64,000 bases of DNA from Eledone cirrhosa (lineage: Eukaryota): NCBI GenBank assembly GCA_964016885.1, contig OZ024745.1:39246001-39310000 (forward strand), in the 5' to 3' direction. Both the position numbers and the translations under genes were made by a program. The notes beneath the pieces were generated by a model. The model was not told the DNA's origin and did no database searches. It worked only from the letters and a program-made list of their open reading frames with translations. Shown here in pieces: positions 1,816 through 54,838 of this stretch (its first letter is position 1; every line of letters starts with the position of its first letter).

Positions 1816-1925
1816 AATCCCGCCGAGGTTGACTTTGCCTTTCATCCTTACGGGGTCGATAAAATAAAGTACCAGTAATGCACTGGGTAATTGCTGGCCT
1901 TGTGCCTAAAGTAGAAACAATTATT
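1816..1925 (+). mobile_element. MetaSINE (tRNA-derived), 5'-truncated
   Basis: Meta-like core GCCTTTCATCCTTACGGGGTCGATAAAATAAAGTACCAG and the same 3' end (GGCCTTGTGCCTAAAGTAGAAACAATTATT) as the full copies at 19.7-20.9 kb and 40.2 kb. Confidence 0.85.
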
Positions 1926-10566: not shown

Positions 10567-10567
<1 letters not shown>

Positions 10568-12209: not shown

Positions 12210-12448
12210 GATTATTAGTATTATTATTATTATTGGCGAACTACGTAGGAAATCGTATTATCGTGAAATCCGCAAAGGTTTGTTGTTTTCAGTTGTTTCA
12301 AATTGCCAGTTATGGAAATCTTTTGTTGTTAAGTGTTTATAAGTTCACATATATGGCTTTCTGAAAGGGACACTCAAAAAGATTGGGGCCTTGAGCCCCA
12401 AATTTAAACTTTTATAATTATCAAACAAAAACTTTCTTTGAAAAAATC

Positions 12449-17300: not shown

Positions 17301-17723
17301 TTCGGGATAAACACTGCAGGCATGGAGGTGCCGTCAGCCGGCCATGTCCGAGATGCGCGTAGGGAGAAGAAACCGTCCAGTGTCCGTGCATTGCTGACTT
17401 GTGGGTTTATGTCGAAAACCTGCTACCTGCTATCAGCTGAGGCCATCGTGAGGATTGCCCCGCCCTCTTCCTTTAGCCGGGAAGGGCAGGCAGTTTTTTA
17501 TCTGTCTGGTGGCCAATGCAAAAGAGATAGTATGGTAGACGCGTCTGAAAAGGCTGAAGACGGCACATACCTCTTCGGTGATGCCCTGATTAACTTTTTC
17601 AAATTTTATTTGAAAAGGAAAATCGGGGTAGAGAGGGAACTGTTCTCTTCCCGGCATTTTGTTGAAAGATGGGTGAGAGAGGCAAGAATGGCCCGAGTGA
17701 ATGAGTATATGCCTGTAAACTGA
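14380..17723 (+). pseudogene. Tx1 ORF2 (APE endonuclease-reverse transcriptase), disrupted
   Basis: Six or more ORF fragments collinear with the intact 1145-aa ORF2 at 49363-52800. Confidence 0.92.
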
Positions 17724-17953
17724 AGGTGGTCTGGTGTGAGAGGCGCTAACGTGGCTTTTTTAATGGGCTTTCTCCACGATAGCCTATTGCGTAATTTTTC
17801 ATTGTCTTTTTTTGTTACATCCTCTGTTTTTTGTTTCTTTTAAACGCAGAAATGCCCATTTGCGCCTCCTGTATTATCCTGCACTGTCCTTCATGTCTAC
17901 TTTGTTTAAACCCTTGTGGTTAATAAAGAAAGTATTATCATTATTGTTATTAC

Positions 17954-19373: not shown

Positions 19374-19387
19374 ATTATCATTAAAGT

Positions 19388-19459
19388 ATTATTATTATTA
19401 TTATTATTATTAGTATTAGTATTATTATTATTATTATTATTATTAGTAGTAGTAGTAGC

Positions 19460-19580: not shown

Positions 19581-19710
19581 GAGCAGCAGTTGTAAAGCCA
19601 CTGTGTGCTTGTGTTGTGATTAAGCTTACTATTTCCATGAGCAAGTTCATATCTAATATGTTGCTATTGGTGATGATGTCGATGCTGATGAGTATCATAT
19701 TACTAATGAT

Positions 19711-19897
19711 AATTGTTTCTACTTTTGGCACAAGGCCAGCAATTAATCCAGTGTATTACTGGTACTTTATTTTATCGACCCCGTAATGATGAAAGGCAAA
19801 GTTAACCTACGCGGGATTTGAACTCAGACCGTAAAGGACCGTAACTCTATGCAAAGCATGGTGTCCGAATCTCTACCGATGCTTCCAATCTACTGCC
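19711..19897 (-). mobile_element. MetaSINE, full length
   Basis: tRNA-like head with B box GAGTTCAAATCC, Meta core and GTAGAAACAATT tail on the minus strand. Confidence 0.9.
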
Positions 19898-19919
19898 ATT
19901 ATTACGCAAATCCGCCATT

Positions 19920-20110
19920 GGTAGTGTATTGGCAGTATCGGTAGAAGATCGTACGCCATGCTTTGACGCATAGAGTTACGGCCCTTGCTATTCTGAGTTC
20001 AAATGCCGCCGAGGTTAACTTTCCATTTCATCCTTACAGGGTCGATAAAATAAAGTACCAGTAATGCACTGGGGGTATTTCTGGCCTTGTGACAAAATTA
20101 GAAACAACTA
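19920..20110 (+). mobile_element. MetaSINE, full length
   Basis: A box TGGCAGTATCGG, B box GAGTTCAAATGC, Meta core, tail. Confidence 0.9.
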
Positions 20111-20120
20111 TTAATATGAT

Positions 20121-20205
20121 CCTTTCATCCTTACGGGGTCGATAAAATAAAGTACCAGTAATGTACTGAGATAATTGTTGGCCTTGTGGCAAAAGTAGAA
20201 ACAAT
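20121..20205 (+). mobile_element. MetaSINE 3' half
   Basis: CCTTTCATCCTTACGGGGTCGATAAA...GTAGAAACAATC. Confidence 0.88.
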
Positions 20206-20221
20206 CATTACTAATGATAAG

Positions 20222-20427
20222 TGTTTCTTAATTAGGCACAAGGCCAGCAATTATCCAGTGCATTACTGGTACTTTATTTTATCGACCCCGTAAGGATGAA
20301 AGGCAAAGTCAACCTCGGCGGGATTTGAACTCAGATCGTAAAGGGATGTAACTATGCTGGAAAGCATTGCGTTCGACCCCTCTACCGTTACTGTCAATCC
20401 ACCGCCCATACTGCCAATCCACCGCCC
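20222..20427 (-). mobile_element. MetaSINE, full length, with duplicated first ~20 nt
   Basis: Reverse complement of the family; TACTG(T/C)CAATCCACCGCCC occurs twice at 20389-20427. Confidence 0.9.
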
Positions 20428-20514
20428 TAATGATAATGCCAGTTCTTATGGTGTTGGGAATGTTGACGCTGTTGAAGACGCTGTTGAGGTTCTATATTAC
20501 GAATTATTTCCCAG

Positions 20515-20662
20515 TTCCAATTTTGAACACAAGCCTAGCAGTTTAGGTCAAATATATAAATCAATTACATAGAACCCAGTATTTGACTGGTGTCTCATAT
20601 TTTTGAAGGATGTACGATCGGAGGCAAAGCACAAATGGATAGGATTTGAAGTTAGAAAGTAG
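20515..20662 (-). mobile_element. Older degenerate MetaSINE-related copy
   Basis: Residual CACAAGCCTAGCA..CCCAGT..ACTGGT..AAGGATG..AGGCAAAG..GGATTTGAA collinear with the family. Confidence 0.55.
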
Positions 20663-20744
20663 ATTTTACCTAAATTTCAATAATACTGCCGGTCAACAGA
20701 CACTAGGAAGAGGTTAATGGAAATAATATTACTTGAACTATCTT

Positions 20745-20933
20745 GGTGGTGGATTGGCAGTATCGGTAGCGGGTCGGACGCCATGCTGCCATGCATAGAG
20801 TTACGGCTCTTGCTATTCTGAGTTCAAATCCCGCCGAGGTTAACTTTGCCTTTCATCCTTACGGAGTCGGTAAACTAAAGGACCAATAATGCACTGGGTA
20901 ATTGTTGGCCTTGTGCCAAAAGTAGAAACAATT
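20745..20933 (+). mobile_element. MetaSINE, full length
   Basis: A box TGGCAGTATCGG, B box GAGTTCAAATCC, Meta core, tail. Confidence 0.9.
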
Positions 20934-21293
20934 AATATTTATTGTGGCTCACTCAGACATGTCTACCGTAATACAGATAGCCTCCTGCATTAGCTAAGCT
21001 GATGACAGGAAACTCGCACAGGCAGTCAAGGAGAACGCTACGCAATTTAATGCCGGAAAATGTCACTCACTCCGCTATCCACTCGCCAAAAAAATGTCAC
21101 TACAGTAAAGCTATACAGGATAATGGGGATTCGAAATCCCCGAGTCGATATCACTATGGGATCTCGGTATCGGCACTAACAATGCTGCATATTTTCATGC
21201 ACACAAAACCAACATGACGGCATTCATTGGAGGAACGACTGGTAGGTTATTCTCAAACTGTGATTACCCCCGACGCCACTCTTGCTCCTACAT

Positions 21294-21328
<35 letters not shown>

Positions 21329-24300
21329 GTGCAGGCATACGCATACCGTTACATATGTTTAATATATTTAACACAGCTGCCTCCAATATCCTTTTTCAGG
21401 AATAACTAATAATTCATTACTTATTTGTTATGTTTTGTCTGAAACCATTTTATTAGCAATATTATCAAAAGTGCTAAACCTGAATTGAACCACGTTACCC
21501 AAATATATAATCATTTGAAGTACTCTACACTGATTGGTTTTCAAAAGAATGTTGTCGAATAGTTCCCATGTGATCAGTCTTTCATGCATCTTTATATTTC
21601 ACATGAAGGCCACGTGATTATCATTTATCTCATAAATACTTTCATCGTCGTCATATCCGATACATCTATATGGTTTATTATTCGTTTCTGGATCATGTGA
21701 TTTCAATCCTTCTCAGGGATCTTTCAATCTGTCACCTACAACATATCCCTTCTGACAGAGATTCAATCTCTAAATATCTGTGACAAGATAGCATGCATGC
21801 GCTGCGTTTACATAAGCTACTTCCTATCGAAATAGATCAATATTTGCTTTAACATTAATCGTCAGATTCAGTATGTGTATATTTATATATATATATATAT
21901 ATAAGTAATGAAGGGGATACTGTAAACCGAATCTTTATATCAATGGATGAAGGAAATATGAGATCCAAAGTAGCAAGCAAACCAGATTATATTAGCGTTT
22001 AAAATCATTCAAATCGTACGACCACACCAATCTCGAGATGTTAAGGAAATGTCAATAAAAAAATAACAATGTTCATCTTCATGGAGACCCCAATTTCTAG
22101 CATTACAAACTGTATTATTTAACAATCAACATCCACAAATGTTTACATAGTTTTACCCATATGGTCTTTCCGTAATTCACCTAAGCACTATTTAAGCACA
22201 CATCCGTAATAAAGAGAAGTTTGACACACATAGGCCTCAAATCACGAACACGCCTGTCACATGCTCAATCTTATATTTTCTCCTCACTCTGTTTGTACTC
22301 ACTTTTCCCAGCTATTTTCCGAAAGGAGAATGTTTTACACTCAGAAGTTCATGTTTTTGTCATTTTCTTTCCACAAGACAATTTGTATGACCGATTTGGC
22401 AATTTAGAATTTGTCTGACATATCATGAAACATTTGGTTGCTATGAATTTCTGTTTGTACTAATATATATTAGGAAGATGAAATCATAAATTTAACTGAA
22501 GTTACATAAAGTTTAGTTGACACTTTTTTGTAATTATTGCACTTCCTAATCACCTGTGTCATCAAGAGTTACAGTTATTTAAAAGGGCTACTAATGTATA
22601 TGTTCTGAAGGAATCCAATTAGATATCCTTGAACTTTTGCTTAAGCATGTATGAATGACATTTAGCAATTTTACCAGCTTAAGTGATGTTTGGGTGAGAT
22701 TGCTTGAGAACTTAAGAGATAGGTGTTCATAGATACATTTTCTTTTTATTGCTATTAAAGGAATCTAAGACATTTAATACAATTTTAACCATCTCCTCTA
22801 TTGATACGATTGTATTAAACACTAATTGAATGTGTTGTCTACGTAATAATCTATTTAATAAATATATATATAATGCATCTAGTTTCATTTCTTAGGCCCC
22901 TTTTCTAATTAACTTTATATATTTATGCATGGAAACATTTTATATATCGAAGAAATAAAAAGAAACTTATGATATATTACATTGTATCACTTTGAATCAC
23001 CCCCAGAAACACTTATTTGGTTTAATCCTCTGAAACAAGCAAGATATCATGAGTGCTTCTTTCGTTATCCATACCATATAGAGATAAATGAAATGCAGTT
23101 TTGTACCTGTGGAAATGTGAATTTAACGCCACGATATCGAGTGGAAATACTGCGATTCTACTTGTCCACGAGTATGTTTTCCATAAACGATGATGCAACA
23201 AATTAATTAAAGCATTCAACGTTATGCAAAGCATCCATCTTATATATATATTCTTATGTACCATATGTTGAGTAAACACACTAATTAGTGAACGAGTATT
23301 CAATTAGTTTTCAGCACTCGACATCATCTGTATGCTTGCAAATACAATTTATCATTCAATGTAGAATTGCGTATGCCGAATACAGATATTCATAATTCAT
23401 TTATTCTTAATCAGTCGTGATATATATTTACATGGCTTTCGCGGTTACCTGATGCGGTGTACACCCAACGATTAGATTTGTGTGTCTAATGCAATAACAA
23501 TTATAGAATGGGGAACAAAGTGTCAGTGCTGACTATATTTCACGCTATTTGGAAACATTATCCAACATTCTAAAGACATCGTCTCTGCTTCACTTTTTCC
23601 TTTCTCTGTTTTACGACAGCTTGTATGTTATTATGATCCCACAAGCAATAGTAATATATATTTGCGTTCTCAGTATTATCAATTTCGCACTATTATCAAT
23701 TTCGCCAGCAACAACCATTCAAGAATAAATACATTTTTCAACCATCTCCCATAACCAAGCAGCTGCATGGAATTACTTCCGCCATGTATAGCGTCAAGTA
23801 CGAATCATTCAGGTTAAAATGCACTACATTGTATATACTAAACATTTTAGGAATACATTATTGGCCACGTCATCACTTTCATATATGTGCTTTTAAAAGA
23901 TGCACTTACGTATGTGCATTTATAAATAAACATGTCGGTAGAAAAATGATTATATACGTCTACGTAGACATATATCACTTCAAATTTCTCGGTATACAAT
24001 TTAGCGATAAACAATTACATAAATGTGTAGTTACATCTCAACTTATTTGGGCTTACTTTTTCAAATAATAAGTGCAGGCGGAGGAGGAAATTTCCTCAAT
24101 CCTCCCCTCCTAATATGTGTTTTGCACAGAGCAAAAATTATCTGAAAAGCAATTTCACATGTGTGCCAAATATAATTAAATATTATATATGTTCCTTCTT
24201 TAAAATATAGATTGTACTAATGGACTCTTATAAACCGATAAAAATATAAGTGCGTGTACAAAAAAACAAATAAAAAATATTTATTTATTTCAACGTTGCC

Positions 24301-27300
24301 GTTGTTTCTTTAACTTGAAAATAAAATCAAATGAACAAAAATATCCGGACTATTGTATAAGTAAATATGTATGAACCCTTTGGGAATTCTATCTCAGCCG
24401 AAGCATTAAGTGATCATAATTTGATTAGATTATGTGAAATACAATTATATATGCTTTTAAAAAGTACATTGTTTTTGTTTATTTTATACACTTGTTTATG
24501 TTTCATGGCAACTTATTCGCCGTTGGACGTTTCTTAAGACGAGAACAACTTACAACAAATCGTACAAATACTCTAGTTAGGGTTTGCAAGCTATTTCAGT
24601 ATTTCTGCTTTATAAGGTGAAAGTGTGTGATTCTATTTTTTTTTTATTTCTGTTCATTGTAAGAAATTGAGATAACACAATATTGGTCTTGGAATAATTA
24701 ATGTAAGTTGGAACGTATTCTGTTACAGCTGGCAGCGAATCTGATTCATTGATTATTGCAACATAGCTGGAGCGAGGAATATAGTTCATACATTGAATGT
24801 CCGTAGTGAGTAGCTGATCTGATTTGATTATAAAATGAAAATGAGTTTGACGTGTCATATATTTAGAATCACTTCTACACAGACTATCAGATATAGAAAC
24901 ATGAGATCAGGTAACATTAATGCAGGATTTTCAGGTGATATCCCGTCGCTTAACAGACATTTTTATCCCTTTCTAGTTTCTGTCATTAGTTTACAGTTGA
25001 GTGGTTCTGTTCAGAATGGTAGAATTTACGAAGCATGAAGAGCATGATGGAATCAATGTTACAATTTATCTGTGTATGTTCAAATCGTTAAACAAAGTTT
25101 TTATATTTTATACGTCGTGTTTCTATACGCTGTATGCTCTCACTTTAGTGAAGTCAATCTTTTAGACGTACATTATAAAGAGATATAACTCTGCATCAGC
25201 ATACCCCTTTAATCAACTTCTTTGTTGGTGTTGATAATGGGATTGAAACATGTGCGGAACTGCTATCATGTTCACTAAACGTCGGAGTTATGTTTCCAAT
25301 CACTTCATGTGTGTTTGCAATTTCAAACTTACAATACGACAAGGAAATACCATTTCCAAATTTTAATCGTTACGCATTTGTCCAGAGTTATTTATTTACT
25401 TATTACGAGTATTGTTTTAAAGTTTCGTGTATAATGGAGTGAACAGCTTGGATTTGGATCCTGTTTGGAAGCTTATTTAATCTTCTGATGGCTAACATAA
25501 AAAAAAAGAAAATGAGTTTGTGTGAGGTTAAACAGTTGTCCAGATTCAGCAACTAATTTCACTTCAAATCACATCCAAAAATTAGGAAAGGAACATATAT
25601 ATTGGATAATATAGTCATAGATGAACAATTACAAAAACATAATGAAAGGATACTATATTTGCTGATGAAAATTCGTGGTTTTATTGCATCTCATTCAATA
25701 CCGACATCTGACTAGGCATGTCCATCGGAATAATAAATAAAATGGCTTCATATTAATACTTTTCTTTGTAAAACATCAGAATGTATACATATATTTCGCC
25801 TCTAAATATCATTCCCATGTATATGCACGTTTATATTGCTATGATTTGATAAACACGTAATAGGTATATATTTATCACACTGAGCTAATATCAATTGTTA
25901 TACTAATTAACATGTAGTATTTCAAAGCTATTCCGTAATTGAAATATTATCAACAAGTGAGAAAAGGGGAAACAAGGAAATGGAGAAGAAAATGTTAATT
26001 AAGAAAAGAGGGAAGGCATGGTGCAAACTCCACACCGTTGCCTGAGAAGTTCAAGACAGCTGCAACAGAACAAACAGTGTTATTTGATTCATACGTCATT
26101 CCTACCTCCTAAAAATCGAATGCGCATTTTTCAATGTTGTGGACGAAAGCAGCAGTCCGGTGATTTTTATCGACTCAGGTCTGCATGACAAAAATGAAAT
26201 GGAAGATCAGTTCGCAGTATTTCGTCATATTCTACTATTGTGTCAAGTGCTTCATTATTATGGCCGACGCTATGAGGTTGGAGGCGAAGACACTATCGTA
26301 ACAAGTATTATCTCTTATTTGTGATTCCTTTTATCTTAAGAAGCACCGTTTGTGACGACAAAGCTGCTACTTATATATGATGATAGAAATAATTTAAAAT
26401 AATGATATTCTTAATAACGTTTATTTATTTCACGTCAACTTTCCTTTCATCTGGTATGTTCCCGATACAGCTACGATAATATTAACGAGTATGTAGGTAA
26501 TGGGGTTGAGTTAATTATCTTTTACTTTATCTGGAATTGACTCTTTAATCAGCTCTTAAAACATGCATTTATATATGCAGTATCAATGTTAATACATATG
26601 TGAAATTAAAAAGTGGGTGAAAGAGTGTATATGTATCACTATTCGCTACACGGCAATTTAGTGTAACATTATAAAAAAATGTGATACTAGTGAGTTAAAA
26701 AATATTTGAATACCAGTTAAATGCTAACCGAAAAAATGCATCATTTTACGTTAGGGATTCCAATATAATCACAGCACATTATACCATTTATTTTACTGAG
26801 CGAAAAAATATCCGAAACTGGGTTGAAAATGTCATAGACTAAATAGGAAGAATTGATGCTAGAGCTTTGACATCTTGCATGCATTAATATAAATTCTCCT
26901 TGTTAATAACGGTCTTCATTTTTTTTTTACCTATTAAAATTAAACCTAATGGCCTATGAAGATTTTAAAAGATTCTCTTATTTAACCATTTAGTAAGGTC
27001 ACCGTTATACAGTGCTATGTGTCACATTGCATGCACTTGAACTCCAGTTTAAATCAATATTATGTTATTTAGACTGTGAGGCTGATAAGTCTAATATGTT
27101 AGACTCATTTTAGAACATGATCTATGTTGAGGTATGTCTGCCATTAAACTTGAAATTTGGAAGAGATTACTAATAAATAGGCACACGTTATCTAATTTAA
27201 CATGTTTTGTTTAATACTATCAGTTACTTGACTGAATATCCAGTCACATATATCCATTTCAAATGAGGAACAGATGTCAGGAATCGTGTTTCTTATTAGT

Positions 27301-30300
27301 TAATAAAATCTGGCTGTTAGCAGTCTGGTCTTTTGAATGCCTCGGCTGCTAGAGAACAATTATGTTAATAGATGTCATTTGAAATGAGTATTGTGGGAAA
27401 CATTGATGTAAGCAGAAAATAATGTGTTGCTGCTCAACTTGTGTCATTGAACCGACAAACCTGTGAAATACATAACACGAGGAATTTGGACTGGAAATGG
27501 AAATGACTTAGGTAAATATATTTCTATGATAGACATGATATTTCAGTTAATTATGCTGGTGATTTGTTTATCATATAATAACCATAGTTCCTAAGTGAAT
27601 TAACAAAATGACGGATTTTACTATGGAGAATTAGCAAATGTAACCACAGACGTCGCAAGGATCGAGCTTCTTAAATTATTATAAGCCATATTACTTGTTC
27701 ATTAATTTTCAACGTAAGAAGAGGATAAACATTATTTACTGCATCTGTCATTGTTTTGCCATAACATTTATATATCTCACCGAAGTGTATTTATATTTGT
27801 TTCCTAAGAAGGCTGATGGAAATACTACATACAATGCACTGCGACTTGTTCAGGCGACTACATGCTTTGTCTTACTAGATGAGATTCATATTAACAAAAA
27901 TCAATAATACCCAACAATATAGGTGGAAGCTGTCTACCTTAATGATTGTTCTACGAATATCCATCTCATATGTGTTAAAGAAAAAGAGACCATTCATTAT
28001 ATGTTTGAAGCTACAATATTCAGATAGCACACGTGGATATTTAAAATTACTTACGTATTGATTTGCAGTTTCTAAAATTTAGCAAATAAATATTAATAAG
28101 AAAATATTTACTGAATATATGTCACGTCTGAATACACTTAATTTTAATACAACATTTTCTAATCTCATTTCTATTTATATATTTATGAGAGGAATGAAAA
28201 AATAAGCAATAGTTGCTAGGATTCGAAATATGGCCATATATCATGACAGATGTAGATCGGAACAATCAACAAGACGCTGTATAGCTTTAAGTGCTTAGAT
28301 AATTAGACATTTAAAAATACAATTTTAGATAAACTCTCAAATATTTATAGTTGCTTAATTAGCCGCCTCTTTTTCTTTAGAATGTACATTCACGTTTTCG
28401 TCAAGAGCGCAAATACATGGTATGAAAATCCGCAGAGCAGCTGAAATACTTCCGGGTGGTAGACTCTCAAAATAATATTATATCTAAACAAGATATATAG
28501 CACTATATTTCAGCTCATTTTACACAATAAACATCACGTTATAATGTTTACTTGTTGCAATCAGCTGTATATACTCCGGGATTCTGGAAATTACGTTTTC
28601 GCGTGTACTTTAGACGTTAATGCATATCGTCAGAAAATAGCCCCGGTGATGAATAGACATCCACGACGTGCATAACTATGTTGTCGGTTCAGAATATATT
28701 GGTGAAAAGATGCCTTATACACATTAAAGAGTTAAGAAGTTGACAAAATAGAACCTTATTCAATATAGTATGTAGCAGAAAAGGGTCCTTGTCAGTAAGA
28801 ACATTAGAATCATGACACTAATTCTAAGTTTGAAACCTGAGAAGTGATAGATAGAAATATAGAAAAGGGTAGAAAAGACGTATGTACGTAGACCTTCAAG
28901 ATGAATATAAATGTTAATAATTATGTAGCGTTTCAGTTATATTATACATATATAGATAGACTAAGTAAATAGCAGTTATTTCTCTTGCTGACCTATCCAT
29001 TATATCATTAATGGTCATGTGATAGAAGCCTTAGACACTTCAGCAGAAGTCTAAGCTTCACCAAATTCAACAATGCCGAGTTCATGAAATACGTAACTAA
29101 TATGTGAAAATCTAGTTAGAAGTTTATATGTCTTCCGTTAAATGTTCTGGAAAATCGATAAAAGCCATAGGTGTTAGAAAAAGGATCAACGAATTTAGAA
29201 TTGAAAGACATTAAACATAATCAGATTTACAGCAAATTTAACGACATCAATGTTAACATCACCCCCTTTCTAAACAGGAAGCAATATAGTTTCATCAATT
29301 TACGCACGAAAACTTTTGTATACATCGGTTCAATTGGGCGACAGAGGAATATTGATATTTGCACAATCAATTGATATATGTGAGCGAGAGCGAGCTAGTG
29401 AGAGAGTAAATGGGAAAGTATATCAGAATATCGTCCTAATTAAGTGAAAGCCTGCATTCTATTACAAGGGCAGGACAACTAAGTAACAAGCACAATAGCT
29501 TTAGACACTACTGGATGACAAGGTATTAATCACATTATAAAATACGAAGAAATGTAAAATATAAATATTAACTGAATATTGAATTGCTAGAGTAATGAAG
29601 CAAGATCATTGAAGAAACTAACATGTAGTACATTTATGTTTGTTTATTCAATATCCAATGTAGACCTCTTAATATTCTTGCCGTTAGAACTGAATATTTT
29701 AAAAGATTTCAATTTAACATTCACGTACATAAATTGTTGTAGCAATTAACTCAGGAGTGTTTACGTATATTAGAGTTTCCAAGAATTCTAGTCAAAAACA
29801 TGAATAATTATGAAATGCAATAAATGCACATGTGTTGACAAAATTAGACATAGGAAGCAATTCATTTTTACTCGTATAATCAATGATTATCAATTAAGCA
29901 ATTATTCGCTGACTGCAATGTGAAACGTATGAAGTTATGATACTCTAGCTGCTGGAAAGTAGTAGTTATCAAATATGAAATCTTTCAATAAGCTTGAGAT
30001 CCAAATAACACGGCCAGTCTCTGTAAGTGTAATAATTAAATGAAGCGAAACGCTAGTAGTCATCCAGCAAGAAGATGTGTGTTAGAGCCATGGGGAGGTA
30101 CTGATAGTGTTCAAACTAAATTTATTGACGTCATTTTGCGTGAATCATTAATTCTAAAGCAACACAATTTCAATATATATATAGCTATGGACCAAATACA
30201 CCTATAGCTATATTATGACCAATGATATTCAACATAACCATTCATATTTATTATGTTGCTCACGTTGACGCTTGCCTCTTACTAATATCAGAAACGGTAA

Positions 30301-30482
30301 AGTTAAGCCTGGATCCATCCATTCTAGTGTTAATTCATTTTGTGTAACTGTACCAGCTTATTACTGCCGTTGAAAAAACTGCGTATATTCCGACATGTTC
30401 ATTTTCATGTTGTTCCTTCTTTCACATTCAGTTACCTTCCTTTTATTGATGGATTGCTGCAGCCTCATCCATATGTTTAGCA

Positions 30483-30774
30483 CAGAAGTTCTCAAACTTG
30501 TTGAGGCCCCTACCCCACGTGGCTACGTTAGTGCCACCAACTCTATTTCTGGAGACAGCTGCCTACACACAACTACTAAATAATATATAATAAATAATAA
30601 ATACTATGTAAACATAAATATGTAATCTTATTTTATTATATTTATATATAATATACATTATTTGACATTCAATATACTATTATGTACTCTTTAGCGCCTC
30701 CTTAAGCCCAAGCGCCACCCTGGATTCTCTCAACACCCTGCAGGGAGCAGTAGCACCCACTTTGAGAACCTCTG
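30483..30774. mobile_element. hAT-type MITE (about 290 bp)
   Basis: Imperfect TIRs CAGAAGTTCTCAAA / TTTGAGAACCTCTG; flanking 8-mers GTTTAGCA and CTTGAGCA (6/8 identical) fit a decayed 8-bp TSD. Confidence 0.7.
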
Positions 30775-31100
30775 CTTGAGCAAAAGATGCACAATAAGAT
30801 TGACAAGAGGCTACCATTTTCCTGTGATGGTCATATGCAAAACTACGAGTTTATTGAAGCTCACAACCTCTGAGAGAGACAGTGTATTCATGCACACCAG
30901 TTAACCATGCCTTATGATTGTTACATTCTGATGGCTCTTTTCCATAAATACATATTTCTACCAGATAGTGGCATTCACTGCAATTAGACATCATACGGCT
31001 TTAGACAGTTGTTTCAGTAAAGAATAGTTGTAATTATGTTGCTATATGTCTGTGCGTTAACGGACGACCGCATCTGAATTTTTAATATGTCCTTTTCTAT

Positions 31101-31159
31101 AATGCGTTAATATACATTATAATGCGTTAATATACATTATAATGCGTTAATATACATTA
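31101..31159. repeat. 20-bp tandem repeat x3
   Basis: AATGCGTTAATATACATTAT repeated three times. Confidence 0.95.
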
Positions 31160-31568
31160 GCATTCTTTTACTTTGGGTATTTAATATGGTGATGACATAT
31201 TTTCTTATTTTAATGGCACAATTCTGATATGCTTTCTTTGCTGCACAATTGTTTTCTTCCACTATCGGTTAATAGGTGCATCTTCGTTCATTTGATATAT
31301 AATAGTTTTAGTTTCCTATGGATATTTTCTCACTGATCAAATTCTTGTGAACTATTGTTAAAACAAACCAGTCTTTTCGAAGAAAATATCAATGCTATGT
31401 TTCTAACGCGAATCTCCTCTCGCCAAATATGTTCTAATCTCACATGTTCAGCATTTTAATATGTCACATGAAAATCATGTTTTAATATATATATTGCTTT
31501 AGGCAACTTAATTTAAATACTTTTAATTTTGTGTTAATTGTGCAATTTCCATTAATGTCGGTTTACTG

Positions 31569-31569
<1 letters not shown>

Positions 31570-31616
<47 letters not shown>

Positions 31617-31729
31617 TGACTACAACGAATACTACTACTACAGCTGTTGTTGCCACTACTACTACTGCTGCTGCTAATACAACTACTACTACTACTACTA
31701 CTACTACTAATAATAATAATAATAATAAT
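31570..31729. repeat. Compound (ACT)n-(AAT)n microsatellite
   Basis: Seen directly. Confidence 0.95.
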
Positions 31730-34700
31730 GCTTTCTTTATTAAACACAAGGGTTTACATAAAGTAGACATTAAGGACAGTACAGGACAATACAGGTCGGT
31801 ACAAATGGGCATTTCTGCGTGTAAAAAAAACAGAGGATGTAATAAAAAAATAACAATGAAAAATTCCCCAATAGGGGGGAGACTTCCGAGAGACATTTGT
31901 GGAGAAAGCCCATTAAAAGCCCACAGTGAACCTGACCACCAAGGCAAGTGCCTTCTCCCAGTTGTCCACCTTTAATTTGCAGACACATACTCAGAGTAGG
32001 CCCATTCACACGGGCCATACTTGCTTCTCTCGCCCATCTTTCAACAAAATGCTGGGAAGAGTGCACATCCCTCTCTACCTTGATTTTCCTTTTCAAATGA
32101 AATTTGAAAAAGTTAATCAGGGCATCACCGAAGAGGTAAGTGCTCGTCTTCAGCCCTTTCAAACGTGTCCACCATACTATCTCTTTCGATCCGTGTAGCT
32201 TAATATCTGGTCCGTATAGCTGACTATCTTGAATTGTCGACAGCCTATGCTAGACCTATCTATTTCTCTACAAAATATTCTATCTAGATATGATCTGGAT
32301 GACCCTATGGAATTTGTCCAAATCCACATTGGCACATTCGGGAAATCTAATCGCTACGTGTCAAACAGTTCAAAACGCCTGAGCAGGTTGATGAGACTCT
32401 TGCACACTCCTCCCCTATCCGCTAATCCCACACAGTTCCAGCGTACATCTAAGATCCCGTTCCAGTCGCCCACTAACACTAAAGAGCGGGTCGTTCCAAG
32501 AAAGGTCTCCAGACGCAGGAAGCAATCAGGCCGCCCTGCTCCTGTCGGGGCATAGACGGCCACTAGCCTGAAAGCTTGCCCGTCTTCGCTGGTCACATCT
32601 AGCACCACCAACTTACCTTCTGGGTCCAGGAAGATGGCCCGTATGGCGAGATCCAAACCTCTCCGAAAAAGAACAGCAACTCCTCCCGCCGATCCCGGAG
32701 GGCTGGGAGAGCGTACACATCGTAGCCGCCGAAGATCGGTGCAAAGGCCCGTGCTTCGGACATTCTGGTCTCGCTGATGGCCACTACATCTATGTTTAGT
32801 GACCTGAGGTCGTTGAGCAGGTGGCCCTGCTTCCATGACGACCCCAAGCCACGCGTATTTATGCTGCCTATTCTGAGTGAGGTCATGTTGAACTGGAGTG
32901 GAAAAGATGGGAACGACTACTTACCTTACTTTTTCGTAGAGGAAGGATGGTTTGTCCATCCTTTTCACTGCTTGTGGCCTCCTCCGGAAGGATGTACTTA
33001 TAAATCCTCCTGGAGAGTGTTTGTCGGAAGTCTCCGATGTCTTTGGGGAATTTTTGCTTTAGTCTTGTGTACGTTTTCTGTGTGATGCGAGTGATTTGTA
33101 TGTGTGGAGGTGGTGTGAACTTTTTGGGTCGTTGTGTAGTCTTTTTCTGTGATGCTGGTGTGGAGAAGCAAGTAGTGTAATAATTGGTTGTTTTTCAAAT
33201 TTAATGCTGTGTAGTGTGTATCGTTTTGGTTGTTTTGTTTTGTTTACGTTTGTTGTGGGTTTGTTTCTGTTACGCTTTTTGGTGACTTTTGTGGTGTTGG
33301 TGATGGTCGTGTTGGGGCTAATGATGGTGATGGTGTTGGTGTTTGTGATGATGGGGTTGGTGATGCTGGTCTGGATGGTGTCATATCTGCCCTGACTTTT
33401 TTGTTTGATAATTTATGTTTCCCTCTGTATTTTGTTTTTGGAGGGGGAAGGAAGATGATTTTTTCTTTTTTGGTTTCTTTTTTGGTTTTTTCTTGATACC
33501 GTTTCCCACTCCTCGTCGTCACAATCTGTCTCCAGTTACGATAAGCCGGGGAGTGGAAAATCCTCCACAGGCGTTGGTTTTGGTTGTGGCGTGGTGGATG
33601 GTGTAGGCGCTGGTGCTAGTTTTGGCGCGTTGGGTGGTGGTGGTGGTGGTTTTTCTACTGTTGCTGGAGTTGTTGATATTACAGTTGTTTCTGTTTTTGC
33701 TGCTACAGATGTTGCTGCCATTTCTGCTGTTGGTGGTGTTGATGGTTAAGTTACTGGGGTGGGTAAGAGAGGTGGTCTCAACCTTTTAGCCTGAGAGCAG
33801 AAAGTCCCTAGGTGGGTTCTTCACCACAAACAACCAACCTAGGCCTTCTCTCCTCGACGATTATGGTGAGGTGGCTGCCGTCAGTGAGGTCTATTACCTC
33901 TGGGATCTTCTCAATTCTTTTATGGTCCGCTTGGATCAGGAGCTCCATCCCCGATCCGGAACAGCTCTCCTGCTTTTCTTTCGCTATTTCAATTATCTTG
34001 GTGTTCGTCTCAATGCCGGCGAGGACGGCAGCAATTAGCCAGGGAATTTCGATGGCCGGTGGAACGTGGGACACCCTGATCTTCACAAGTCTCTGCCCAC
34101 AATAGCTCGGGACGAGTGTGAAGTCGTCACTTCTTAATGGGGCCATGGAGTGTTCTCTGGCCTCCTGTGGTGTTTCAAAGAACATGTCCACGGTTCCATA
34201 TTTCTACCCACGTCTGATGTGGGGTTTCTTTGCCCACATATGTCCCAAAGCTTTTTGGATTTGGGACTCGGATGTGCGTTCCACTCGGCGCGATTTTATG
34301 TTAATTGTCCGATAAGACACAGTGCATAGGCGTCGTTGCTCCATTTTATTCGGTGTGTGTGTGTGGGGGGGGGGACTGACCCTGTACCCATCTTTCTTTA
34401 CCATTCATTTGGCTTCTTCTAATTCCTCCTGAGTTACCTGGATCGCTTCGCACGTTTTTGCTACTCTGGCAAAACTCAGGGTAGTTTTCTTAATTTCATT
34501 GTTGCTGTTGTTGTTATCGTTATTTATGTTATTGTTAATTTTAGTTTCAGTTGTGGTGGTGGTGGCGTCAGTGGTGTTCGGTGTGGAAGAGTTCACTTTG
34601 GTTGAATTCATTTCGATATCACGAGTTAATTTATTTTTTCTTTTGTTTCTGTTGTCGCTGTGGTGGTGGTATGGGTGCAGGCTTTAACACCTGCAGTCAT

Positions 34701-35067
34701 TGGTAATGGCGAGAAATGAACGTCTGCCTGAGACAAATTAAATATATTGCTACTGCTTACATGTCCAGTGTTGGCAAACGTAGCAATATTTACAATGGTG
34801 GTGTCGGTGTGAGGTGTTAGATTGTGAGGAAGGAGTGACTCTGAGTCATCCATGATTTTTCAAAGAAAATTTTTGTTTGATAATTATAAAAAGTTTAAAT
34901 TTTGGGCTCAAGGCCCCGACATTTTTGACTGCCCTTTTCAGAATTTAATGTATGTGCACTTATATACAGTTAACAATAAACATTTTCCATAAATGGCAAT
35001 TTTAAACAATTGAAAATGACAAACTTTTGCGGAGCTCACGATGATACGATTTACTACGTAGGTCGTC
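31730..35067 (-). mobile_element. L1/Tx1 LINE (ATT family) with both termini intact but the RT deleted
   Basis: Same 5' start and 3' end as 12235-17933; ORF1 fragments; ORF2 ATG at 32886 (MTSLRIGSINTRGLG); endonuclease joined directly to the ORF2 C-terminus near 32190; (AAT)n on both sides. Confidence 0.95.
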
Positions 35068-35111
<44 letters not shown>

Positions 35112-35120
35112 TAATAATAA
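35068..35120. repeat. (AAT)n tract separating head-to-head Tx1 and Dong
   Basis: Seen directly. Confidence 0.95.
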
Positions 35121-36926
35121 AAGGCATTTGACATGGTGTCTCATTCTCGGATCGCCAAAAGCCTGGTGATCTTCAAGGTGGCAGATAACGTCAGACAGTT
35201 GTTGGGCAAAAGTATGAGGTCCTGGGAAACAGAGTTGATATCAACTGGAGAATCCTTGGGAAGCGTGAAGATCAAGAGAGGTATCTTCCAGGGAGATAGC
35301 CTGTCCCCTCTGCTGTTTGTCCTTGCCCTGATGCCCCTGACCAGTGTACTGCGAAAAGTGAGAGCAGGATACAGGTTGGGAAATGGAGGGCTTACCATCA
35401 ATTACCTCCTCTTCATGGACGATCTTAAGCTCTTCGGGAAGAGTGAGAAGGAGTTGGATGTGCTTGTTGACACTGTCCGTATTTTCAGCAGTGATATATG
35501 TATGCAGTTTGGTATTAGTAAGTGTGGAGTCATTGTGATGAGGAGGGGTAGGTTGAGCAGAAGTAACGGAATCCAGATACCAACAGGTGAGATGATAAAG
35601 GAAATTGACTCTGAGGAAGGATACAAGTATTTGGGCGTTCTGGAGGCTGATGGCATAAAGAACAAAAAATGAAGGAATTGTTAAGAACTGAATACATTCG
35701 GAGAGTAAGCAGCGTATTGAAGTCACATCTGAACAGCAGAAATGCCATAAGCGCAGTAAATTCCCGAGCTCTGTCTATTATTAGGTATAGTGCGGAAATT
35801 CTGAGATGGAATGTTGCTGAACAAAAAGAAATGGATAGGAAGACTAGGAAGTTATTAACTATCTACAACATGTTTCACAAGAGGAGTGATGTCGATAGAC
35901 TCTACTTAAGGAGATATGAGGGTGGAAGAGGTTTTATCAGCATAGAGGACTGTGTTCAGATGGAGAAAAACAACCTACACAAATACGTGACTGATAGTAA
36001 GGAGCCAATGCTCAGAACTGTACTGAAGGAGGGGACAATAGGCCAGGGGATGTCCAAGGAGGAAATAACATCAAGGAGAAAGAGCAGCCTTCAGGACAAA
36101 TCCCTTCATAGTACCTTCTTTGAGAAAACTGAATTTAGAGATCCACAGACATGGAACTGGTTGAGAACAGAGGAGACCTTAAAAAGGCTACAGAAGGAAT
36201 GTTAATGGCTGCGCAGGAGCAGGCACTCAAAACGAAGTGGCTGAAACACCATATTTACAAGGAGGAGGATAGCCCACTGTGCAGGATATGTGGAGAGAGA
36301 GAGGAGACTGTGGCTCTCATTGTATCCGAGTGTAAACACCTAGCCCAGTCCCACTATAAGGGCTGGATACATGATGTGATGGGCAGGGTGATCCACTGGC
36401 ACCTGTGCAAAGTAAACAATTTACCACATTCTGAGAAATGGTATGAGCATAAGCCAGAGGCGGTGATAGAGAACGATCAGGTGAAGGTGCTGTGAGATTT
36501 TAGGATACAGACGGACAAGAAACTGGAACACAATAGACCTGAGATGGTGGTTGTGGACAAAGAAAAAAGATCGTGTCTGATTGTGGATGTGGCCTGCCCA
36601 TTCGACACGAGAGTGCAAGAGAAGAAGAGGGGGAAAATTAACCGATACCAGGACTTAAAGTGGGAGGTAAAAAGGATTTGGAACTGTCATGAAGTCAAAG
36701 TGATCCCGATTGTCATAGGTGCACTAGGGACTATCTCCAAAAGTTTCCAGGGATGGTTAAAGAAAATCGGCCGCTTCACGCATTTTGGAACGCTTCAAAG
36801 GCATGCTTGCTGGGAACAGCAAGAACCCTCCGATACGTCCTGAATATCTGAGGCTGCAGGTAGTGGCTTGATATTCATTCCAACGGACTTTCCAGTTAAC
36901 TAACATCAATGATTGAGACTCAAGGA
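35119..36926 (+). mobile_element. R4/Dong family A, 5'-truncated (RT, zinc finger, RLE, 3'UTR)
   Basis: ORFs 35133-36843 with KAFDMV, GIFQGDSLSP, FMDD, CRICGEREETV, NRPEM, DVACPFD; a few frameshifts; (AAT)n tail. Confidence 0.95.
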
Positions 36927-36953
36927 ATAACAATAATAATAATAATAATAATA

Positions 36954-37136
36954 ATTGTTTCTACTTTTTGGCACAAGGCCAGCAATTGCTCAGTGCATTA
37001 CTGGTACTTTATTTTATCGAACCCGTAAGGATGAAAGGCAAAGTTAACTCGGCGGGATTTGAACTCAGAATGGCAAGGGCCGCAACTTTATGCGTCAAAG
37101 CACGGTGTCTAACTCTCTACCGATTCTGCCAATCCA
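36954..37136 (-). mobile_element. MetaSINE inside an (AAT)n tract
   Basis: Family sequence on the minus strand with AAT repeats on both sides. Confidence 0.9.
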
Positions 37137-37150
37137 AATAATAATAATAG

Positions 37151-38850
37151 TATGTTCATTGTTGGCCATAAGGACCGAATTATATAGGACGATACAAAAA
37201 ATAGAGGCAATTGGGATTTACGAATCGAGTAAATTAGATGCAATCGAGTAAAATAGAGGCAATTGGGATTTACGAATCGAGTAAATTAGAGGCAATCGAG
37301 TAAAATAGAGGCAATTGCGATTTGCGAATCGAGTAAATTAGAGGCAATCGAGTAAAATAGAGGCAATTGGGATTTACGAATCGAGTAAATTAGAGGCATT
37401 TCGGATTTACAAATCGAGTAAATTAGGATAAAATAGCCAAAAAAGAAAACAATTTTCACAATATAATTTACCAAACATGGATGCGGATCACACATAGAAG
37501 ACATACGCACCTTAGTAATCCGAAACAACCATACTCTCCGAGAGCACCATAGGAGGGTGCCCCTCCGGTGATAAAAATCCATATTTGGTGGGGTTTCTTA
37601 TGAGAACCCCTTTAAATAAGAAAACGGGAGGCTTATACATTAGGAGGTCCACATTATACGGGAAGATCTCCCTAATGATGTTATAAGTCGTTGGGCCCAT
37701 CGGCAATATATTGTGTGTTTGTGGCATTTTGAGGGTACTAGTTGCAAAGATTTTCCCATCTCTCTTAATCTTTTTGGTTCGTGCTATCAAGTCCATCCGT
37801 TCTTACTTGGCTTGTATTATTACCTGGACATCAGGTGTATATATTGTTGATTGTTAATGGTAATGGATGTAATGTTAGGGGATGCCTTATTGTTGCTGCT
37901 GTGGAAGTGTCTGTTTTGCTTTTTTTGTAGATGTGTTAACATGCTGCAGGATCATATTATTTCGGATGTATTATATATTTATTTTATTTTTATTTTTTGA
38001 CCTATTCGTGTATCTCATTCATTTGATTCAGATGGGTTTTGTGGGGTGCGAGTGAAGTTAAGTGTGAGTGTTTTGAAGTGCGCAAGGGGAAGAGCTACGG
38101 TAGATCTTCTTCTGAGAGGGCCTTTAAGTTTCATGCAGATATTGCTGCTTTGGGTAGTGTTGTGTTTGCTGGTGATGGTGTTTCTTTTGCTGCTGTTGGG
38201 TGTATTGTTGGCCTTTTGCCACTTTCGTAGACGTTGCTCTTGTTGGTGTTGGTGGTGTTGTAGCTGCCAATGGAGCTTTTGCTGTTGAAGATGATGTTGC
38301 TACTGTTAGTGCTATTGTTGTTCCTTGCTGTTGCTGTTGCACTTTTTAGGCCCCTTGTGTTGACAGTAAGGAGGTATTTGAGTTCCTTGTCTTGTATTGA
38401 AGGGATAATGCTCTGAAATGACCACTGAGTCCAACTCTCAAATGACTAATTTGCCCCTTAAAGACGACAACTGGAACATCTACCCGCAATAAAAATATGC
38501 AAGTCCACTACTGATGGAAGGGGTATCAGATCTGGTGCATTGTGGATATCATCTGGTTTGTAGTAGGAGTATTGCCTTGATACCAGACGAATCAACTTTT
38601 GACCAATTGGTATTTATTCGCCTCTCACTCTGCCCAACAAAAGCAAAATAAGGATGAACCACTGAATTGTCTGATACACAAATAGTATCATATCCAAAAT
38701 TACATTGAGCTCCGAAATTTTAGAAAATAGGTAAGTATAATATTTTGATATTATTCCTTCCTGATGCGCTTTATCTACAAATAAATTGATGTATCCTCTC
38801 TCGATTTTCGTTATGGGCATTAAAGTGTTCAATCAGCTGAATATCGCAAT
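37151..38850 (-). mobile_element. Degenerate Tx1-related element with ORF1-like sequence only
   Basis: Minus strand: APDLIPLPSVVDLHIFIAGRCSSCRL*GQISHLR (knuckle region), T/Q/P-rich linker, GPTTYNIIREIFPYNV (cf. APQDTYKTLKNNFKEDV), then 3'UTR ending GTCCTTATGGCCAACAATGAACAT plus ATT repeats; 5' limit uncertain. Confidence 0.6.
37200..37425. repeat. Composite minisatellite, 52-bp higher-order unit (33 + 19 bp)
   Basis: AATAGAGGCAATTGGGATTTACGAATCGAGTAA + ATTAGAGGCAATCGAGTAA three times, then two 33-mers. Confidence 0.92.
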
Positions 38851-39764
38851 CATAAATTAACACATAAATGCTAGCATATTCCACATATATGGGTATACAT
38901 TTGAGAATTCTTAGGTGCAATCAAGTCCCGATATATGAAAAAGCACAATCTCTGAATACAATTTGAATACACACCAGTCGTTTCGTGATTGGGGAGTGAT
39001 CTCTCTTACCACACAGCCATGAGTGTTACAACCTAACTAATATGTATCATTATATCACATGAATCGTGTACATGTTAATAGAAAAACAAATTGTTACTTC
39101 TAAATGTTTATGTTTTAAAGGAACATTTCCGTTTCAAATCAAAATTTCCTCGTAATATGAACGCAAATCTTTGAAATGATTCATTTATTTGACATTTTCA
39201 TATTATGCTATATTATCGAGAACATTGCGTAACAGAGAATTTACGATAGAACGACTGTTGAGTTGAATAGATAATATGTGTGATCAGGGAATAAACAAAT
39301 CTATTAAAATGAATAGCTTCACGGAAATGAAAATGCCATCACTACTAAGATTCATATAAACAACAATGTATTCATGAGATAAGCACGTCAATTATTAGGG
39401 AGCTGTCTACGTTTAAAAATGGCTTGGAATCATGCGTTTTCTTCCCACTGAAACAAAAGCCAAAGAGGTGGCTAACAACAGTGTATACATATATGCCCAT
39501 GAACCGCTTGATAAAGCAATGAAATTCTTCCAAATTACATTCCGAGGTCCTAAAAATATGTTCAATAATATCCTAGATATACAAAATGGTGGTCGGTTGA
39601 GAGCCTAAACCCATTTTGCTATTGCTCGACGAAACCGCGCATGAACTGACGCTGAATACAAGCAATATAAGTATATATACTGCGATATTTGTTCCCGTTT
39701 GAAGTAAATACTTAAGCGTATGTCATTGTAAATTCGTAAAAGCCTTGGATCCTAGACCCCCCCC

Positions 39765-39767
<3 letters not shown>

Positions 39768-39808
<41 letters not shown>
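39768..39808. repeat. (TA)n microsatellite
   Basis: Seen directly. Confidence 0.95.
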
Positions 39809-39810
<2 letters not shown>

Positions 39811-39855
39811 CCTTTCTGGCATATTTTGGCAGTGGTATTTTGGTTATCGTGTTGA

Positions 39856-39936
39856 GCTCTACTGATGAACGACTCGAACCGTTACTAATCCCACTGAACA
39901 GTTTCGTGAAATAGTATTTTAAAGACTATATAGAGC
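39856..39936 (+). ncRNA. Type I hammerhead ribozyme motif
   Basis: Stem I GCTCTA/TAGAGC; core CTGATGA (39862-68); stem II ACGA/TCGT; GAA; stem III ATAGT/ACTAT; AUA triplet with predicted cleavage after A39930. Confidence 0.85.
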
Positions 39937-40149
39937 ATTTGTTGTTTTTTCCAAATTGAAGGATGAGTATTTAAACTTTATTTTATTCTGAGTTAAAACT
40001 CGATTGGTTTTTTTCCCTGGATTTCACTAAATCTGTGGATAAAATCTCTGTCTTGATTTTTTTTTTAATTGAGTTTGAATTTTGTTCCCATATCTTGCGT
40101 TAAATATTTTCCATTTTGACGGTATAGTCAATTATATATTATGAAATAC

Positions 40150-40335
40150 TTGTTTCTACTTTAGGCACAAGGCCACCAATTACCCAGTGCATTACTGGTA
40201 CTTTATTTTATCCACCCCGTAAGGATGAAAGGCAAAGTCAACCTCGGCGGGATTTGAACTCAGATCGTAAAGGGACGTAACTATGCTTGAAAGCATGGCG
40301 TCTGACCCTCTACCAATACTGCCAATCCACCGGCC
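40150..40335 (-). mobile_element. MetaSINE, full length, with 18-bp TSD
   Basis: TTATATATTATGAAATAC at 40132-40149 and 40336-40353. Confidence 0.93.
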
Positions 40336-40391
40336 TTATATATTATGAAATACCGTTGGCTTGTTGCTCACATTAATTTCTCTATTTTCAG

Positions 40392-49098: not shown

Positions 49099-49362
49099 TG
49101 TTTCTTTTATTTGCCACTAGGGCATCAAAAGTGGGACAAGTACAAAGGGGGGAGTTTACACAAAAAGGCGTCCTCAATAAGGAGGAGGCAATAACAAAAT
49201 ATAAAAATAAAATAAGATATAACAAAAAATAAAATTTTTAACAAAATTCTCAATAGAGAGGAGGCGCCTTGGGGGGTCGCACACACCCCCGAAAAAAGTG
49301 TGCAACCCTTCTCCTAAGGAGCACAGAGAAGGGGTGCTCCCTTGGTCTTTCATCTTCCTCAC

Positions 49363-52800: not shown

Positions 52801-53198
52801 GTTGGTGGTGAAGAGAAAAGGCGCTTACCTCTCTGCGTCCCGGGTATCGGGCTGCACAATTTCCATTAGGGTGGGGGATGGGTTGTTGGTGGGGTGGTGG
52901 TTTGTGGAAGTGTGGGGGCATCAGTGTGTTGTGTGGTTGGGGAGCTTGGGGTTGTATGGGTGTTTGGGGAGGGGGTGGGATAGTTTTTTAGGAGGACGCG
53001 GTTAATGGGCCCGACGCAGGGGGGACCCACGTCCTCTTTAAAATTGTTTTTTAAAGTTTTATAGGTGTCCTGTGGAGCCTTAATCATTTTGAGGTGGGGG
53101 AAATCCCCTGCCTGGGTGAAGTTAGGCCCTTGTGTTTTTATTAGATTGTTGTTGTACACAATGTTTAACAGTTTTTTGTTTCTTGTATTTATGTATGT

Positions 53199-54620: not shown

Positions 54621-54838
54621 TTAAAAAATATTGACTTTTCAACAAGAAAAAACTTTTTTTTTTTTTGTTTAACTATTTCGCCTAAAGGCGTAGAATATTT
54701 TGAGAGACTGACCAGATCAAAGTTTGACCTGGCAGTCCCTCTACAAAATGGTACAAAAATTAAAGTTATCAGACAAGAATTTCTATAGAAATTTAAACAG
54801 AACTTACTCAGCAAGTTATACGCGTGTGTCCATCCCAG

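Follow-up and report, generated by a model that had tools for sequence, protein, structure and literature searches.

A SINE of Eledone cirrhosa and its probable partner, a Tx1-like LINE with a similar 3' end

Background

Which LINE (long interspersed element) copies the short interspersed element (SINE) that is scattered over one stretch of Eledone cirrhosa DNA? The stretch, called the window here, is 64,000 nucleotides long (assembly GCA_964016885.1, contig OZ024745.1, positions 39,246,001 to 39,310,000, forward strand). All positions below are counted from its first letter. The window is AT-rich animal DNA, dense in microsatellites and retrotransposons. Self-comparison and alignment yield one SINE family of about 185 nt, in eight copies or fragments (S1 to S8). 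There are also four LINEs of the L1 superfamily (T1 to T4), with 66-87% identity across their aligned parts, and five fragments of a second kind of LINE. From their C-terminal motif and tail, we take these fragments to be Dong/R4-like.

The partner of the SINE is probably a Tx1-like LINE. The protein of its second open reading frame (ORF2) would bind the SINE through a hairpin predicted for both tails, and copy the SINE into ATT-rich DNA. The partner need not be among T1 to T4.

According to PMC13282606, about 12% of the Octopus vulgaris genome consists of SINEs. L1-clade LINEs are the exception to tail sharing: of 58 tail-sharing SINEs listed in the published table, three have L1-clade tails (maize and Chlamydomonas), none of these is from an animal, and the table has no row for Tx1 (PMC3747384, PMC3472496). 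If the pairing is true, stringent 3' recognition enters the animal branch of the L1 superfamily. It would also bear on whether the poly(A) recognition of mammals is derived. A hairpin of 25-30 nt and the open ORF2 of T4 form a compact pair that can be tested.

Elements compared

The SINE copies are as follows, where TSD stands for target-site duplication.

1816..1919, forward strand: S1, 5'-truncated, 12-bp TSD starting with ATT (1804-1815 and 1920-1931)
19714..19902, reverse strand: S2, one of four clustered copies, its head facing that of S3
19918..20106, forward strand: S3, upper stem of the tail hairpin broken
20121..20203, forward strand: S4, a fragment with central segment and tail, upper stem broken
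20222..20426, reverse strand: S5, head duplicated, 10-bp TSD (20211-20220 and 20427-20436)
20745..20930, forward strand: S6, flanking repeat exact over just 7 bp, perhaps what is left of a longer TSD
36956..37136, reverse strand: S7, within (ATT)n, tail-to-tail with a Dong/R4-like LINE
40151..40335, reverse strand: S8, 18-bp exact TSD (40132-40149 and 40336-40353)

The copies diverge by 1-11% from their majority sequence over central segment and tail. The element is short, non-coding, high-copy and dispersed, and it has TSDs, as tRNA-derived SINEs do. Positions 19691-20436 hold four pieces in a nested, inverted arrangement, with about the same 14 letters after S2 and S5. It looks as if two SINE copies entered one site, with inverted pieces between them. 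S8 is nested in another repeated element, whose flanks at 40090-40135 and 40350-40380 draw reads from other copies.

Reads from restriction-site-associated DNA (RAD) were also used (run X4, 12,467,656 reads). Of six runs, three contain the stretch; these come from one sample, possibly the one used for the assembly. The S8 stretch collects 213,260 of the X4 reads. A short form of the SINE is read straight through in 35,868 X4 molecules, and all eight window copies are of this form. Loose read ends point to another form of the SINE, made longer by an additional hairpin and a C-rich linker ahead of the tail position. This form is supported by 17,572 and 7,666 reads at 40183-40194, where the read ends probably mark the restriction site.

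The L1-superfamily LINEs are:

7384..9360, forward strand: T1, 5'-truncated with an internal deletion, terminal loop at 9340-9344, followed by (ATT)n
12235..17933, forward strand: T2, full length but frameshifted, lying between (ATT)n tracts, terminal loop at 17913-17917
31730..35067, reverse strand: T3, internally deleted but with both ends present, flanked on either side by (ATT)n, terminal hairpin shifted in register
49099..54838, reverse strand: T4, in (TATC)n, ORF1 and ORF2 open, terminal loop at 49116-49120

A large internal part of ORF2 is missing from T1 and from T3, yet the 3' end is kept in each, and in T3 the 5' end too. T4 has a long hairpin of about 18 bp in its 5' untranslated region (UTR), and is a candidate active element.

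The shared 3' tail

The LINE 3' ends lie at 9337-9360 and 17911-17932 (forward strand) and at 31730-31752 and 49100-49123 (reverse strand). In an alignment of these four with the eight SINE ends, the last 25 columns are almost free of gaps and all sequences are co-terminal. Within this block, SINE and LINE agree at 14-18 of 25 positions (56-72%), and LINEs agree among themselves at 16-23 of 25. Just upstream there are only 2-6 identities per 9-10 columns. The best tail match is T4, with about 23-25 of 30 positions identical when gaps are allowed.

An initial annotation of this DNA, made from the letters alone, had already likened the SINE end to Tx1 3' ends. The strings that it quoted for the SINE and the LINE ends are all found where it placed them, and its remark that the match covers only about 25 nt agrees with a block of 25 columns in a stretch of 25-30 nt. 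Its three LINE ends are correct, but the fourth, at 31730-31752, was overlooked. The pattern it gave for the SINE end is exact in three copies (1896, 20907 and 19711), while the other five differ from it by 1-4 letters.

The likeness can be found without using the SINE. When a profile is made from nothing but the four LINE ends and run over about 128,000 window positions, all eight SINE ends rank within the best 15. For each SINE end, 0-3 of the 127,942 other positions score as high. Pairwise local scores, judged on 500 shuffles, reach p<0.05 against T4 for 8/8 copies, and against T1 for 8/8 copies in one run and 6/8 in a second. Conversely, on a profile of the SINE tail the Tx1-like ends score from +3 to +14, and five Dong-like ends score from -12 to -20. 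Judging from these alignments, the last 25-30 nt of the SINE likely derive from the 3' end of a Tx1-like LINE.

The reads were searched for longer versions of the shared tail. The T1 end collects 8,900 reads, stacked on its final 40 nt. Here and below, statements on loose read ends concern the T1 end and the 24 rows listed out of 249. Upstream, these show other UTRs of LINE-like appearance; downstream, they run into ATT repeats or a Dong-like tail. No SINE subfamily with a longer T1-like tail is among them; the RAD reads are cut near the tail, which limits this search.

At 9330, upstream of T1-like ends, there is a mixed contig consensus whose first ten letters also occur in the linker of the long SINE form. 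This is a weak lead to a longer-tailed SINE subfamily. The agreement is 0.67, and the RAD version looks like a LINE UTR.

The predicted terminal hairpin

If the last 185 nt are folded, T1, T2 and T4 end in a loop CUUGU or CUAGU closed by 3-4 pairs, with a probability of 0.72-0.90. The same loop can be closed in 6/8 SINE copies, where the middle pair is reversed, G-C for C-G. Adding a lower stem of 5 bp gives a model with two helices, in which 82% of 96 cells pair, versus 42-54% in controls where the model is slid along the alignment.

Some differences between SINE and LINE affect both sides of a pair and preserve it. This happens at three pairs (GC 6/CG 3, UA 7/AU 3 and GU 6/UA 3). Among the LINEs there is one more such change, GC 10 versus AU 2. 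These pairing changes are suggestive of a shared hairpin. They are not decisive, because the structure was drawn from the same sequences and the SINE copies count as one event.

A scan for the hairpin plus AGAAA gives nine matches in the window, every one at a SINE or LINE end, where the null mean is 0.07; the motif was drawn up after the ends had been seen. Within the hairpin, AATAAA is kept by the LINEs and missing from the SINE, as would be expected if the LINE RNA alone is polyadenylated.

Insertion sites

The two kinds of element also have similar surroundings. In 7/8 SINE copies the 3' flank agrees with in-frame (ATT)4 at no fewer than 9 of 12 letters, which holds for 0.34% of window positions. 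Three of the four LINE ends match in the same way. Because four of the seven SINEs share one cluster, this amounts to four of five separate loci. S1, S5 and S7 have ATT-type letters on their 5' side as well, so that in these copies the letters belong to the target and not to the tail. In the X4 reads on the plus strand, an ATT-type letter follows the SINE end 3,268 times out of 4,111. T1-like ends in the listed loose rows mostly continue into ATT repeats.

The SINE has TSDs of 10, 12 and 18 bp. For the LINEs these lengths are unmeasurable within microsatellites. The initial annotation had noted an 18-bp TSD around the copy at 40150, which proves to be exact. It had also noted a SINE at 36954 with Tx1 polarity. 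This is S7, and (ATT)n does flank its sense strand on both sides, as with T2 and T3. The same (AAT)n around S7 doubles as the 3' tail of a Dong/R4-like LINE.

The target of the SINE is looser than that of T1 to T3, and T4 uses another repeat.

Dong/R4-like LINEs as a control

The second kind of LINE offers a control, since it occurs in the same window:

35121..36925, forward strand: Dong/R4-like fragment ending in (AAT)n on its sense strand
7189-7367, 9387-10520, 10541-12211 and 17954-19360, all reverse strand: its relatives

As a partner of the SINE, this kind can be rejected. None of 32 tail comparisons reaches p<0.05, and the polarity of the elements is opposite to that of the SINE.

The (ATT)n or (AAT)n tracts serve as hubs, at 7189-19423 and 31700-37136, in which elements often sit tail to tail. 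Dong-like LINEs point one way, and Tx1-like LINEs and a SINE the other. T1-like ends lie next to a Dong-like tail in reads from elsewhere too (307 reads, X6).

Proposed mechanism

The proposed steps are these. RNA polymerase III would transcribe the SINE from the A- and B-box-like motifs that are visible in its head. The ORF2 protein would then recognise the terminal hairpin, by its CUUGU loop, C-G closure, upper stem of 3-4 bp, A-rich bulge on the 3' side and lower stem. Its endonuclease would nick the DNA in such a way as to leave ATT downstream of the element on its sense strand, as the flanks do read. Target-primed reverse transcription would leave the duplications of 10-18 bp that are seen.

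Counter-evidence and other explanations

A number of observations weigh against a Tx1-like partner. They are given here with the explanations that compete with it.

The first group concerns the strength of the match. A typical SINE-tail score occurs about twice per shuffled 64-kb window, or about 2e-5 per position. Pairwise scores reach p<0.05 for one of eight copies against T2 and one of eight against T3. A hairpin in the 5' UTR of T3, which is not terminal at all, matches the SINE tail better than every LINE 3' end does. The eight SINE copies represent one evolutionary event, and four of them sit in a single cluster. The likeness might then be chance or convergence in an AT-rich genome. Because shuffles reach the score about twice per window, the weight is on the position of the hit, at the very end of the SINE, and not on the score. 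Chance would have to place so rare a hit exactly there and in the register of the LINE ends, yet leave all five Dong-like ends with negative scores where the Tx1-like ones are positive. Chance is judged a very improbable explanation.

The second group concerns what the tail was compared with. The match is short, and at 56-72% identity it falls below bivalve SINE/LINE pairs, for which PMC11481361 gives 35-61 bp at 72-95%. The LINE ends compared are the Tx1-like and Dong/R4-like ones of the window. The central motif of the SINE is absent from the listed loose rows at the T1 end. The true partner could be a LINE from another clade (CR1, RTE, L2 or I/Nimb) outside the window with a better 3' match, the Tx1 likeness being secondary. 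CR1 and RTE dominate the published pairs in PMC3747384, the bivalve SINEs of PMC11481361 pair with CR1, CR1-Zenon, L2 and Nimb, and PMC13282606 lists RTE, CR1 and Dong-R4 as recently active in Octopus vulgaris. Of those last three, only Dong-like ends are in the comparison. Such a partner would however turn the co-terminal alignment, the structure-preserving differences and the ATT polarity into coincidences, and it is considered rather unlikely.

The third group concerns folding and targets. T3, one of the four LINEs, folds its end in a shifted register, and the upper stem is broken in two of eight SINE copies (S3 and S4). If the whole SINE is folded, the probability of the hairpin is at most 0.09 in 8/8 copies, as the 5' arm of the stem is taken up by pairing with a segment upstream. 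Forcing the hairpin costs 1.3-6.1 kcal/mol in the six copies tested. Folding z-scores are unremarkable for seven of eight ends tested. On the target side, the 3' flank of S8 matches (ATT)4 at 5/12 letters, a pure (ATT)n tract is found at 1/8 SINE copies versus 3/3 for T1 to T3, and T4, the best tail match, lies in (TATC)n and not in (ATT)n.

Such data might fit a tail that once came from a Tx1-like LINE and is now a relic, with the SINE priming on ATT-rich DNA by means of any LINE enzyme available. The short form is common (35,868 molecules) even though the hairpin is concealed in its predicted equilibrium fold, and its targets are looser than those of T1 to T3. A relic would not be expected to be so well preserved, at 1-11% divergence and with the upper stem intact in 6/8 copies, and this explanation is judged quite unlikely. 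The linker of the long form may free the terminal hairpin.

Mobilisation of the SINE by Tx1 ORF2, which the initial annotation put forward as a possibility, gains from the structure-preserving differences, from target polarity and TSDs, and from the exclusion of Dong/R4-like LINEs, the one other kind in the window. It is not proven, the comparison covering the Tx1-like and Dong/R4-like ends of the window.

Clade of the LINEs

T1 to T4 belong to the L1 superfamily, which is marked by two ORFs and, in ORF2, an apurinic-type endonuclease, a reverse transcriptase (RT) and a C-terminal zinc motif. In T4, ORF1 (53199-54620) has one CCHC knuckle (CX2CX4HX4C), and ORF2 (49363-52824) has endonuclease, RT and zf-RVT domains according to Pfam. 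The nearest solved relative of ORF2 is human L1 ORF2p (E 1e-46, versus 1e-19 for R2). Among named proteins, the intact ORF2 is closest to one of Argonauta hians, at 67% over the RT region. In an RT tree T1, T2 and T4 join an Argonauta protein at 99/99; the tree is without a Tx1 reference, and one T2 row crosses the frameshift and has a long branch.

The placement in the Tx1 clade is suggested by two features, an ORF1 of the CCHC type in place of one with Transposase_22, and the microsatellite targets. CCHC-type ORF1s are associated with Tx1 in PMC5203782. The whole T4 ORF1 has no Pfam match, and its neighbours in a protein atlas carry zf-CCHC. As to targets, T2 and T3 have (ATT)n on both sides and T4 has (TATC)n on both sides, while T1 ends in (ATT)n. 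No protein among the database matches of ORF2 is labelled Tx1, and look-ups of ORF2 in the atlas and in clusters returned no clade name.

A Pfam scan of 163 of the 186 open frames outside annotated elements found no additional RT or endonuclease. The other 23 frames overlap with microsatellites, SINEs or LINE edges and were omitted.

A second hairpin in LINE 5' UTRs

Two of the LINEs also have a hairpin near their 5' end:

12383..12401, forward strand: T2, 5' UTR hairpin with a stem of 7 bp and loop CUUGA, resembling the SINE tail
34904..34916, reverse strand: T3, 5' UTR hairpin with a stem of 4 bp and loop CUUGA, closer to the SINE tail than anything else in the window outside SINEs

On the SINE-tail profile these score 18.2 (T3) and 13.4 (T2), where the best 3' ends score 14.1 (T4) and 12.9 (T1). 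A score of 18.2 is reached in 1% of 200 shuffled windows. The hairpin lies about 155 nt from the 5' end and about 60 nt before the start of ORF1, with the stem polarity of the SINE, and is predicted at a probability of 0.93-1.0. The copies in T2 and T3 are one event, and T4 is without it.

The 5'-most 155 nt of T2 and T3 were also considered as a captured SINE. This is rejected, with p from 0.08 to 0.995 over 24 comparisons.

The hairpin may be a second binding site, or a sign that short likenesses arise away from the 3' end. The R2 element is known for binding of both RNA ends. One speculative extension is that Tx1-like LINEs targeting (ATT)n carry a C-UUG(U/A)-G pentaloop hairpin at both ends, that ORF2p holds both, and that the SINE, one of the most abundant in this octopod genome, hijacks this code: the stem of its tail would follow the 5' copy, and the placement of its tail the 3' copy. 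This is regarded as unlikely. If true, it would mean stringent two-ended RNA recognition in an animal element of the L1 superfamily.

What kind of SINE is it?

The name MetaSINE, used in the initial annotation, finds no support. By eye, the central segment is unlike the Meta domain of BivaMeta-SINE1 and BivaMD-SINE1 as given in PMC4824008, where a MetaSINE has a 66-bp Meta domain right after its promoter, which is derived from transfer RNA (tRNA). A 14-nt Meta motif with at most three mismatches matches the window four times (9.04 expected), and never within the SINE. This comparison covers two bivalve consensus sequences, and the cuttlefish member SepiaSINE2 is not among them.

Only the last dozen or so letters of the central segment look, by eye, like the final part of the CORE domain found in BivaCORE-SINE2 and further SINEs of the CORE kind. 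In PMC8967140, the SINEs of octopus carry the labels tRNA-Core and tRNA-Deu. In the alignment, A- and B-box-like motifs can be seen in the head. ARAGORN finds no tRNA in the window, and Rfam has no match on S8. The SINE appears to be tRNA-like, with a central domain that is possibly CORE-related.

The central segment also occurs in another animal's SINEs, with several heads and tails. It was found in 121 metagenome loci, the shared part being at most query positions 86-141. Some of their heads look 5S-like. All 121 lack the SINE tail motif and the LINE-end motif, and no LINE ORF is matched in any of them. As the common part is the central segment only, these loci are uninformative on the partner. 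The central motif has no matches in viral and prokaryote collections, and a literature search with 12 of its letters returned four papers, all unrelated.

Other features of the window

Beside S7 there is a minisatellite with a 52/33-bp unit (37198-37426). Long inverted repeats lie at 46170-46591 (about 420 bp) and 56309-57194 (about 890 bp), and resemble fold-back elements or miniature inverted-repeat transposable elements.

Comparison with known systems

Ohshima and Okada (1994) reportedly described the octopus SINEs OK, OR1 and OR2, which may already include this family. The literature searched, which did not cover Repbase, Dfam and SINEBase alignments, contains no Tx1-tailed SINE and names no partner for octopus SINEs. 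The tail motifs have no match in the published supplements searched (for PMC4758252, all but one file).

The closest precedent for the clade is SINEU of crocodilians, for which, as for the present SINE, mobilisation by Tx1-clade LINEs is proposed, there Tx1-Mar (PMC4494074). That paper proposes Tx1 mobilisation from shared targets, and reports no LINE with the 3' end of SINEU-1. The initial annotation's phrase 'uncommon pairing' is fair, with the addition that a Tx1-mobilised SINE had already been proposed in print. SINEU heads derive from small nuclear RNA, unlike the tRNA-like head here, where the link is a predicted shared 3' hairpin and ATT polarity. Microsatellite-targeting Tx1 families are known as well. 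Kibi, Koshi and crocodilian families insert in microsatellites, as T1 to T3 do in (ATT)n and T4 in (TATC)n; their repeat units differ, and no SINE partner was seen for them in PMC4494074.

Sharing of an L1-clade 3' end between SINE and LINE is described for ZmSINE2 and ZmSINE3 with LINE1-1_ZM in maize, and for SINEX-3_CR with L1-1_CR in Chlamydomonas (PMC3472496, PMC3747384). The maize pair has a hairpin with a conserved loop, a variable stem and compensatory changes (PMC3472496), much as the sequences suggest here. Those pairs are from a plant and an alga, with poly(A) or poly(T) ends and, in the alga, a match of about 80 nt. The pair proposed here is from an animal, with about 25-30 nt and ATT-rich targets.

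For the mode of recognition, the closest parallels are UnaSINE with UnaL2, and the zebrafish LINEs ZfL2-1 and ZfL2-2. There the ORF2 protein recognises a 3' stem-loop in which the loop is specific and the stem can be swapped (PMC4176376), as is predicted here. Those LINEs are of the L2 clade and their recognition was shown by experiment, while for the pair proposed here it is a prediction from sequence. With MetaSINEs the family shares a tRNA-like head, a central segment found across phyla and exchangeable tails, although its central segment is unlike the Meta domain of the two bivalve consensuses (PMC4824008). Both the principle of tail sharing and a Tx1-mobilised SINE were known before. What appears to be new here is the proposal of a Tx1-type pairing by way of a shared tail.

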